Notes: generated by a model not told the origin, from the sequence alone. DNA of 19,471 bases from a virus (IMGVR_UViG_2645727743_000022); one strand, 5' to 3'; positions 2,445 to 3,971 are shown, numbered from the stretch's first letter. Numbers and translations: made by a program.

Positions 2445-2783
2445 GTCTTTTTCCCTTTTCTGGTTAACGTGACATACCAATAACTCTTGTCTAAAAAGCC
2501 AGCAAGCTGAAAGACCGGTATTCGCAACCACCAGCGCGTTTAACGTCCTGTGCCGCTTTTTGGGCGCAAAAAACCCGCCAGGCGGCAGGTTTAAGCAGTG
2601 TGGCGAAGTAACCACTCTTAACAGCATATTTGTTTTTTTACGATTGTAAAATGTTTGTCAACATAATTTCTATAGAATTTATGTCAGCAAAATGCAAAAA
2701 TCCTCAATGAGCCTCGTGTCTCATCGCAGTATTATTGCCAGTATGGAATGTAACTTTAGACATTACTACACAGGGATTATTTT

Positions 2784-3971
2784 ATGTCTCTTCGCTTCAG
2801 ACAAACTTTTACCATTTTCCCCGGAGTGCGCCTTAACATCGGTAAACATGGGGTAAGCGCAAGTTTTGGTGTTCCCGGAGCCACAGTTAATGTTAACCCA
2901 AAAGGAATTAAAGCAACTGTAGGGTTACCCGGTTCTGGTTTATCGTATACATCACCTCATTTACCATACAAAGATAAACCATCCACAACCATTCCGCTAA
3001 ATCCGTCGTCTATAGAATCTCCTGTTCATACACTTGGGTTAATTTCAGACAACACTCCATCAAATGCAAAAATGTACATGCCACAAGCAGGCATGAATGA
3101 AATCTCTAGTGCCTCAGTAGAGGCCTTGACAAGCACATCTCTTTTACCTTTACGAGACTTGATCGTTAAAGCACGAGAACAGAGAACGGAAATAGCAACG
3201 GACTTACAAGAAGCTCTTGTAGAAGAATCAAGACAAAAGAGCGAATTGGCTCGACGTAAATCAAGCCTGTTTCGATGGTTTTATAAACGTCGCATTGCAG
3301 AACTTGAAGTAACGCTACCACAAACACAAGCAGAAGTATCTCGTCTTGTATCCTGGGAAGATAACACTAAAATCGTCATTGATTTCGAAAATAACGATTC
3401 CTCACAACGGGCTTATGCTGCAATGATTCGTGCTTTCGATATTTTAAAATCAAGCATCAAAAAATGGGATATTACCGCAGATAAAGCTACAGATCAGTTT
3501 GCAGAAAGGACGTTAGCTACACGAGCAGTTGATCGTCATCCAGTTGTATTTGATTTCGCTTCAACAGATCTAATTCGTTTTGCTGGACGAGCAATGCGAT
3601 TTGAAAACGCCAATGGCGACGATATATTACTTTATCCCGGCATTGCTGTAATTCCCCGCCCCGATGGGGTATTTGCCCTGATTGACTTACGGGTATTACA
3701 AATTAATGCGCAGCATCAAGGGTTCCATGAAGAGGATGGTGTTCCGAGTGATGTCAGCATAGCTGGACATACATGGGCAAAAACAAATAAAGATGGCTCA
3801 CCAGACCGACGATTTAAAGATAACTATCAAATTCCAATTTGCATTTATGGAAAGTTATATTTCCAGTCCAAAACAGGCATAACTGAAGAATACATGGTAT
3901 CAAATGCTGATGCAGCTCTGGCTTTCGCAGAGGCATTTAAGCGCTATCAGGATTCACTTAGCATGGAGTAA
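2784..3971 (+). CDS. Uncharacterised 395 aa protein with DUF4236-like N-terminal motif; AT-rich moron opposite to the late operon
   Basis: Clean 395 aa ORF. N-terminus RFRQTFTIFPGVRLNIGKHGVSASFGVPGATVNVNPKGIKATVGLPGSGLSYT resembles the glycine-rich DUF4236 signature as I recall it. Central coiled-coil-like region (residues ~130-200). Visibly lower GC than the flanking replication genes; long AT-rich upstream region 2628-2783. Confidence 0.75.
   Translation: MSLRFRQTFTIFPGVRLNIGKHGVSASFGVPGATVNVNPKGIKATVGLPGSGLSYTSPHLPYKDKPSTTIPLNPSSIESPVHTLGLISDNTPSNAKMYMPQAGMNEISSASVEALTSTSLLPLRDLIVKAREQRTEIATDLQEALVEESRQKSELARRKSSLFRWFYKRRIAELEVTLPQTQAEVSRLVSWEDNTKIVIDFENNDSSQRAYAAMIRAFDILKSSIKKWDITADKATDQFAERTLATRAVDRHPVVFDFASTDLIRFAGRAMRFENANGDDILLYPGIAVIPRPDGVFALIDLRVLQINAQHQGFHEEDGVPSDVSIAGHTWAKTNKDGSPDRRFKDNYQIPICIYGKLYFQSKTGITEEYMVSNADAALAFAEAFKRYQDSLSME

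Follow-up and report, generated by a model that had tools for sequence, protein, structure and literature searches.

The 19,471 nucleotide sequence IMGVR_UViG_2645727743_000022, to which we refer throughout as the window, is part of an Escherichia coli lambdoid prophage and carries, at 2784-3971 on the plus strand, an open reading frame (ORF) that begins with ATG and encodes a 395-residue protein with an N-terminal DUF4236 domain. The gene is carried as a single-gene cassette in a slot between the antiterminator gene Q and the putative late promoter pR′, and its product is predicted to consist of a cationic DUF4236 beta domain, a disordered linker, a helical hairpin and a pleckstrin homology (PH)-like domain; we hold this four-part layout, together with the cassette and the slot, with high confidence. 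As to function we favour, tentatively, a lysogen-expressed, membrane-proximal phage-exclusion factor. New here are the delimitation of the cassette, the recognition of a cargo hotspot between Q and pR′, a corrected view of the transcriptional geometry, a predicted PH-like core with an invariant loop, and relatives with predicted membrane anchors and wall-binding domains.

A constrained gene of foreign composition

The gene is known already in RefSeq, by domain name only, where WP_027662165.1 ('DUF4236 domain-containing protein [Escherichia coli]') is an exact match to the ORF product. A first-pass annotation of the window had delimited the element as 2628-3971, which corresponds to the ORF together with the 156 nt intergenic region upstream of it. 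The N-terminal sequence MSLRFRQ lines up with the N-termini of 46 homologues, and a Shine-Dalgarno sequence ends 7 nt 5′ of the ATG, both it and the 5′ leader being kept upstream of homologues with 77-80% identity in other Enterobacterales. Comparison with two E. coli orthologues (93-95% nucleotide identity) gives a ratio of nonsynonymous to synonymous substitution rates (dN/dS) of 0.2-0.4, and we therefore regard the ORF as a real, constrained gene that is under purifying selection. The gene has a GC content of 0.416 overall and 0.293 at third codon positions (GC3), compared with 0.51-0.53 and 0.55-0.57 for the DnaB, DnaC-like and methylase genes, and the intergenic regions that flank it are poorer still (0.31 and 0.34), which bears out the AT-rich character remarked upon in the first pass.

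The suspected resemblance of the N-terminus to DUF4236 was confirmed by a match to PF14020 over residues 3-56 (E 7.2e-20; 71.7 bits against a cut-off of 27) that covers all of the profile (positions 1-55 of 55), and the protein as a whole belongs to the phage protein family phrog_17982, which it matches end to end (E 7.4e-170; residues 1-393 against profile positions 1-382 of 390). Beyond DUF4236, Pfam gives no family for the protein; a scan against NCBIfam returned nothing, and one against PADLOC-DB 2.0.0 returned no family at E<=0.1. A profile search against the sequences of the Protein Data Bank (PDB) gave coiled-coil noise only (E>0.07) and no sequence relative with a solved structure, and a Foldseek search of viral structures recovered other DUF4236 proteins only. 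The protein has neither a signal peptide nor a transmembrane helix, and a hydropathy scan found no hydrophobic segment in it. We found no functional work on DUF4236 or PF14020 in the literature. Judged by these searches, the protein is tied to no known toxin, porin, Bor/Lom-type conversion protein, defence or structural family.

A predicted PH-like core with an invariant loop

An AlphaFold2 model, built from a 47-sequence alignment spanning 30-78% identity, has a mean predicted local distance difference test score (pLDDT) of 85.6. Residues 7-61 are modelled as six short beta strands at pLDDT 62-71, and residues 62-100 as disordered. The segment that had been described from the sequence as coiled-coil-like is modelled as a helical hairpin, with helices at 118-160 and 164-194 and pLDDT above 90, and is followed by an alpha/beta domain (residues 196-395), also above 90. 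The latter is the C-terminal domain of roughly 200 residues in which no motif had been recognized, and indeed it has no Pfam match even at E 5; the same holds for the C-domains of 45 family members, none of which matches bPH or any other Pfam family at E<=5. Its predicted structure is that of a PH-like fold, in which a seven-stranded beta sandwich is closed by a C-terminal helix. To this extent we provide the first structural and contextual description of the core domain that is always paired with DUF4236 in the phrog_17982-type family.

Conservation follows the predicted architecture. Mean identity across the family is 46-52% in the domains and 10% in the linker. Thirteen alignment columns are invariant and a further 29 are at least 90% conserved across phyla, and they cluster in two motifs, NANGxD and TWxKxNKDGSPDRRFxxNxQIP, the latter forming an invariant loop to which W331, N335, G338, D341, R343 and N347 of the 395-residue protein belong. 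Such clustering suggests a specific site, for binding or for catalysis. Over the 47 family members, the DUF4236 domain averages 7.7 lysine and arginine residues and 0.1 aspartate and glutamate residues in a length of 57, and is thus a polycation.

A cassette in a variable cargo slot

On the left, other prophages are homologous to the window up to about 2656; on the right, homology is regained at about 4146, where Q has its stop codon, and these breakpoints define the mobile unit as a cassette of about 1.49 kb (Table 1). The cargo gene is present in 13 of 5426 complete E. coli genomes, and all 13 copies adjoin the same Q allele, yet they do so in two different replication-module backbones. Most prophages with the same Q family and late-promoter block lack the cassette and carry other cargo instead. 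The cassette is a compositionally foreign, present-or-absent, single-gene cargo element, or moron, that has been acquired horizontally. Its gene stands on the strand opposite to Q, as had been noted, and the small ORF, the methylase gene and the tRNA genes beyond are likewise on the minus strand.

The alternative cargo is diverse. In phage phiP27 the slot holds L22, a T5orf172/MUG113 protein of 409 residues for which PD-Lambda-1 models score E 2e-89, and elsewhere it holds restriction-modification genes that directly follow Q (annotated as type I HsdM and S, the best match of the methylase being to type IIG at E 3e-211) or a DUF262 NsnA/PD-T4-2_A-like protein together with a HEPN-like nuclease and a Dcm methylase. 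E. coli LD39-1 has an Lc/NmpC-type porin gene there, on the opposite strand, and another E. coli prophage encodes an ORF6N protein; in further prophages there are unknown ORFs of 148, 166, 245 and 339 residues, the majority of them on the opposite strand. E. coli prophages have, between Q and the putative late promoter, a recombination-variable cargo hotspot, and the four or more unrelated unknown ORFs within it would be candidates for defence functions themselves. The first-pass annotation had called this a classic moron position, occupied in other lambdoid prophages by toxins, porins and defence genes; for the porin and for the restriction-modification, PD-Lambda-1-like and PD-T4-2/NsnA-like genes this is correct, but the Shiga toxin (Stx) genes of other prophages lie farther downstream, past the tRNA genes and outside the slot that adjoins Q. 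In Stx-type and DLP12-type prophages, then, the slot is a hotspot that holds validated defence families as well as a porin, and a conserved, uncharacterized family found there (about 2800 cluster representatives in many phyla, with a confident model) offers a definite candidate for a novel mechanism of exclusion. Should the gene prove to have no phenotype, it would be one more unknown moron.

A promoter scan of 2628-2783 found no plus-strand consensus sigma-70 promoter, and no terminator was found after 3971, where the 3′ spacer is without stable structure; homologues elsewhere begin right after an upstream terminator. A search for flanking repeats that might mark the recombination site gave short, chance-level matches only. 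The left edge of the cassette is occupied by a near-palindrome (Table 1), whose 22 nt arms are 82% complementary. It is confined to cassette-bearing prophages, occurs once in the window and is unrelated to the rest of the window, immunity region included; it may be a candidate operator for the cargo gene. There is also a 16 nt inverted repeat, 88% complementary, between 2743-2758 in the 5′ leader and 4135-4150 in the region of the Q stop codon, which could have arisen by chance.

The putative late promoter and the direction of late transcription

The right-hand limit of the next conserved block places a putative late promoter to the left of the 5′ end of the cargo gene. When six prophages with different cargo are aligned, the block common to them starts exactly at the -35/-10 pair and continues through a small hairpin and a GC-rich stem as far as the small ORF; it is present in 2215 of the 5426 E. 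coli genomes. The hairpin at 2591-2566 (an 8 bp stem, a 4 nt loop and U6, as folded) is kept in this alignment with changes that look compensatory. Downstream of the block, in the loci examined, there is the small ORF, then a methylase or helix-turn-helix (HTH) gene, then tRNA genes and stx or holin. A sequence-string search for the pR′ leader returned nothing relevant. A constitutive pR′ with early termination is documented in Stx phages (PMC7547250), and from promoter, hairpin and alignment together the interval 2650-2566 is most likely pR′ with its first terminator. With pR′ at 2650-2623, Q and pR′ enclose the cargo gene, which is divergent from pR′. Late transcription would thus probably start beyond the 5′ end of the gene and lead away from it rather than through it, and we infer that the only transcription antisense to the cargo gene is early read-through from pR past Q.

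The match to E. coli O157 genomes, strain 86-24 included, spans 2445-2578 only and so falls short of the promoter and hairpin. This would be expected of a Q-allele-specific pR′/qut module if those prophages have a different Q type, as the prophage of 86-24 presumably does.

In lambda, pR′ lies directly after Q. Were the same true here, the promoter would be located within 3972-4138 and Q-dependent late transcription would run antisense through the cargo gene and turn it off in lytic growth, which is how late transcription had been envisaged in the first-pass annotation. The textbook arrangement speaks for this, as does the AT-rich composition of the spacer, in which hexamers resembling a -10 element occur (TGgTATAAA, near 3990 on the minus strand, is one). 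However, no minus-strand promoter-like site was scored in the spacer, which is specific to the cassette and is not found in other prophages with related Q alleles, whereas the promoter-plus-hairpin block at 2650-2566 is common to prophages whatever their cargo; the O157 homology that stops short of it also fits a Q-specific module, if the Q type differs. We consider a promoter directly after Q to be very unlikely, and the supposition of antisense late transcription is best abandoned in favour of a pR′ to the left of the gene. If this geometry is true of Stx phages, cargo placed upstream of pR′ leaves the Q-dependent late and toxin transcript uninterrupted.

A widespread family with members predicted to be membrane-anchored

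A search with the core alone (residues 101-395) matches, at E<=1e-3, the representatives of 2828 clusters built at 50% identity, and 395 of these reach E<=1e-30. Among full-length relatives, identity is 75-81% in other Enterobacterales and 62-65% in Rhodobacterales. There are at least 583 loci in species-representative genomes, from phyla that include Proteobacteria, Acidobacteriota, Bacteroidota, Verrucomicrobiota, Planctomycetota, Chloroflexota and Nitrospirota among others, and 49 viral contigs have a copy, often at a provirus end.

More than a third of the best representatives (54 of 149, or 36%) are long forms of over 480 residues, and most of these have a single transmembrane segment at about residue 410-450, as predicted by a hydropathy scan. 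In five of the ten long forms scanned with Pfam, SH3_3/SH3_4, PG_binding_1 or PDZ domains are found C-terminal to the transmembrane position. In the absence of a signal peptide one would expect to find the conserved core in the cytoplasm and the additional domains outside the membrane; application of the positive-inside rule to 41 long forms was uninformative.

The surroundings of the family are varied, and over 120 loci there is no conserved neighbour or partner gene and no antitoxin-like partner. Some copies are at prophage ends beside an integrase, UmuDC, DinI, an invertase, a tail-fibre assembly gene, Lom or a DUF2971 gene, and the 77-80% identical homologues are at prophage ends directly after a terminator. 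The Rhodobacterales copies with 62% identity are single-gene inserts among housekeeping genes, and others are in variable islands, one of which (JGI) has DNase_II, Tle1-like and HEPN/MNT genes. In an Azospirillum group and a related metagenome-assembled genome (L034, L035, L036, L042 and L043; approximately 2970-9750) an Hhe/PDC-S37 helicase-nuclease gene of 1660 codons lies on the same strand 11-12 nt before the family gene, or overlaps it. The family members of this group are long (572-582 residues), and the two genes may constitute an operon. In a crude test, 8 of 119 immediate neighbours matched PADLOC models at E<=1e-8, as against about 9 of 119 genes at a distance of over 5 kb; this small and non-independent sample showed no general enrichment.

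Three further contexts were noted. In four loci (L052, L061, L063 and L084; two from Bacteroidota, one from Ignavibacteria and one from Azonexus) a gene for an ion channel of voltage-gated type (Ion_trans, Ion_trans_2) lies on the same strand 13-193 nt upstream. In two Microcystis phages, for example Mea-Yong924-1 (L142, 5067-6140), the gene that comes next after the large terminase encodes a full-length homologue of 35% identity. Clostridioides difficile phages such as phiCD146 (L143, 4001-4642) encode a DUF4236 protein between the gene for a 'bacterioGp15 family protein' and the tape-measure gene, which we take to be the kind of slot held by the HK97 gp15 moron.

Comparison with known systems

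A close parallel in genomic organization is the Lc/NmpC-type porin moron of PA-2 and DLP12, an independent single-gene cargo that in LD39-1 occupies the same slot on the opposite strand. The Lc porin is expressed from the prophage. It is an exported outer-membrane beta barrel, however, whereas the DUF4236 protein lacks a signal peptide and transmembrane segment and has a predicted PH-like cytoplasmic core, and the two are unrelated in sequence and fold. The defence genes of the slot (L22 of phiP27, the NsnA/PD-T4-2_A-like DUF262 gene with its HEPN companion, and the restriction-modification genes) resemble the cargo gene in address and in behaviour as cargo, but the protein matches none of their models and is without a nuclease, methylase or NTPase domain.

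In structure the protein comes close to bacterial and eukaryotic PH-like domains, among them a bacterial PH domain (PDB 3b77) and those of PDK1, Akt and Sin1, with which identity is only 6-11% and, as noted above, no bPH match is found; classical PH domains also lack the 17-residue insertion (NKDGSPDRRF...) and the alpha/beta subdomain at 196-280 of the 395-residue protein. Other phage DUF4236 proteins (phiCD146 gp15 and ORFs of Klebsiella, Acinetobacter and Pasteurella phages) share the N-terminal domain of about 55 residues and are likewise uncharacterized. Their C-terminal parts differ, however, and only the first 55-80 residues align, so that the phrog_17982 core is a distinct family. For the long members alone there is an analogy with single-pass envelope sensors such as the PASTA Ser/Thr kinases, in which a cytoplasmic module is likewise joined through a single transmembrane helix to a domain that binds peptidoglycan outside; unlike these, the long members have no kinase or other known signalling domain, and the protein in the window has neither the transmembrane helix nor the external domain.

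Possible functions

Our preferred, if tentative, reading is that the cargo gene would be transcribed alone in the lysogen, opposed during lytic growth by pR read-through only, and that its product would work on its own in phage exclusion or abortive infection, positioned at the cytoplasmic side of the inner membrane. The PH-like domain would serve as a ligand- or partner-binding (sensing) module, the hairpin would mediate dimerization, and the cationic DUF4236 domain on its flexible tether would be the output, binding an anionic surface (membrane or nucleic acid), associating with itself, or both; long family members would couple the state of the envelope to a cytoplasmic response. The case for action near the membrane is made by the relatives tethered to it, by the PH-like fold and by the cationic domain, and that for phage exclusion by the slot, the mobility of the gene, its stand-alone nature and the local adjacency to defence genes. 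A bolder version, in which the protein is the founding member of a new and widespread family of single-protein anti-phage immunity, with a PH-like sensor controlling the polycationic DUF4236 output and with the SH3b, PG-binding and PDZ domains of anchored relatives sensing the breach of the envelope at phage entry or lysis, strikes us as rather unlikely.

The same anchored relatives can be read differently, with the protein as an envelope-associated factor of lysogenic conversion or physiology: an inner-membrane scaffold or adaptor that alters wall or membrane homeostasis, stress tolerance or the cell surface, of which the prophage copy is a soluble version. The abundance of long forms with a predicted transmembrane segment, half of those scanned having SH3b, PG_binding_1 or PDZ domains, agrees with this, as do the many copies in ordinary chromosomal neighbourhoods, the four Bacteroidota-type loci with an ion channel gene directly upstream, the lack of enrichment for defence models among neighbours and the presence in the same prophage slot of a porin, a classical agent of lysogenic conversion. 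It is less easily reconciled with the patchy horizontal spread of the family (62-80% identity between Enterobacterales and Rhodobacterales) and its recurrence in prophage cargo slots and at prophage ends, both of which are typical rather of conflict genes, or with the absence of any conserved partner or pathway context, and we regard it as doubtful. A role in the lytic cycle of the phage itself, such as in lysis timing, DNA handling or virion assembly, might be suggested by the homologue that follows the terminase gene in the two Microcystis phages, co-oriented with the structural genes, and by the different DUF4236 protein beside the tape-measure gene in C. difficile phages. The cassette is dispensable, however, being found in 13 of 5426 E. 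coli genomes as against 2215 with the adjoining late-promoter block; its positions differ between prophages, most family members are outside prophages, and the gene is oriented against both early and late phage transcription, all of which makes a lytic function quite improbable. Another reading is that of a selfish or neutral passenger, AT-rich, of recent acquisition, silenced (for instance by H-NS) and making no contribution to phage or host, or of an addiction-type toxic gene. A GC3 of 0.29 and spacers with 31-34% GC are commonly seen in xenogeneic DNA that is silenced, the promoter scan yielded no consensus site and the gene is rare in E. coli, but the dN/dS values among E. coli alleles, the more than 20 residues that are invariant or nearly so across phyla and the confident AlphaFold2 models do not suit a passenger, nor does the lack of an antitoxin-like partner suit an addiction gene; we give this explanation slight credence.

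Prophage layout and other features

The window shows a Stx-phage-like prophage in reverse reading. A CI-like repressor gene is at 10837-11532 on the plus strand with a Cro-like gene near it, and after the latter the minus strand carries Rha/Ash-type genes, replication genes (an HTH/DnaD-like initiator, an IstB/DnaC-like loader and a DnaB-type helicase at 4758-6197) and Q. Past Q, still on the minus strand, are the small ORF (2247-2444), an N6/N4 DNA methylase gene (1038-2096), three tRNA genes (754-997) and a TerB-like ORF. The coordinates of the cassette and its immediate surroundings are listed in Table 1.

Table 1. Features of the DUF4236 cargo cassette and adjoining regions (window coordinates except in the last line)
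Feature	Position	Strand	Evidence or remarks
Small 65-residue ORF (phrog_331), first gene past putative pR′	2247..2444	-	198 nt coding sequence (CDS) annotated in four related loci (L001-L004)
GC-rich hairpin with U-run, terminator-like, for short leader RNA	2566..2591	-	RNA fold
Putative late promoter pR′, TTTACA-16-TATGCT, divergent from cargo gene	2623..2650	-	Promoter scan and comparative alignment
Near-palindrome, 38 bp, TTTGTCAACATAATTTCTATAGAATTTATGTCAGCAAA	2654..2691		Left cassette edge, between putative pR′ -35 and cargo gene
Cargo cassette, ~1.49 kb (gene, 127 nt upstream, ~174 nt downstream)	2657..4145	+	Homology breakpoints
Shine-Dalgarno AGGGA	2772..2776	+	Sequence; conserved in Enterobacterales homologues
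CDS, DUF4236 domain-containing protein, 395 residues	2784..3971	+	ORF call, phrog_17982, WP_027662165.1, dN/dS
DUF4236 domain, residues 3-56	2790..2951	+	Pfam; six short beta strands (predicted), strongly cationic
Pro/Ser/Thr-rich disordered linker, residues 57-104	2952..3095	+	pLDDT <50; length and sequence variable
Helical hairpin, residues 118-160 and 164-194	3135..3365	+	AlphaFold2 model
C-terminal alpha/beta domain, residues 196-395	3369..3968	+	Predicted PH-like beta sandwich with C-terminal helix at its end
Antiterminator Q (QuuD/82-type), convergent with cargo gene	4139..4504	-	PF06530 E 2.6e-51; phrog_79
Cargo loci in the same slot	L004 3422-4651; L005 101-3356; L137 3754-6612; L140 4075-5172; L141 3820-4839; L139 3946-4683; L006 2963-3409		

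The product of the small ORF is sometimes named TrmB-like. A longer ORF of 126 codons at 2247-2627 on the minus strand was rejected as an over-extension through the putative pR′ and hairpin, the homologous annotated CDS having 65 codons. The tRNA genes, a Met(CAT)/Arg(TCG)/Arg(TCT) trio, hold the position of the ileZ-argN-argO set of Stx phages, and the first of them is annotated as tRNA-Ile in related prophages. The trio is followed at 165-461 on the minus strand by the TerB-like ORF and not by stx, so that the layout is that of a Stx-phage late region with no toxin in the visible part.

At some distance from the cassette, Rfam identifies a C4 antisense RNA (82 bits) and an isrK Hfq-binding RNA (62 bits), at 8892-8979 and 9004-9080 respectively, both on the minus strand and within or just upstream of an Ash/Rha-type ORF at 8283-9137. 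This region resembles the immI (c4-icd-ant) antirepressor control module of P1 and P7, here in a lambdoid prophage.

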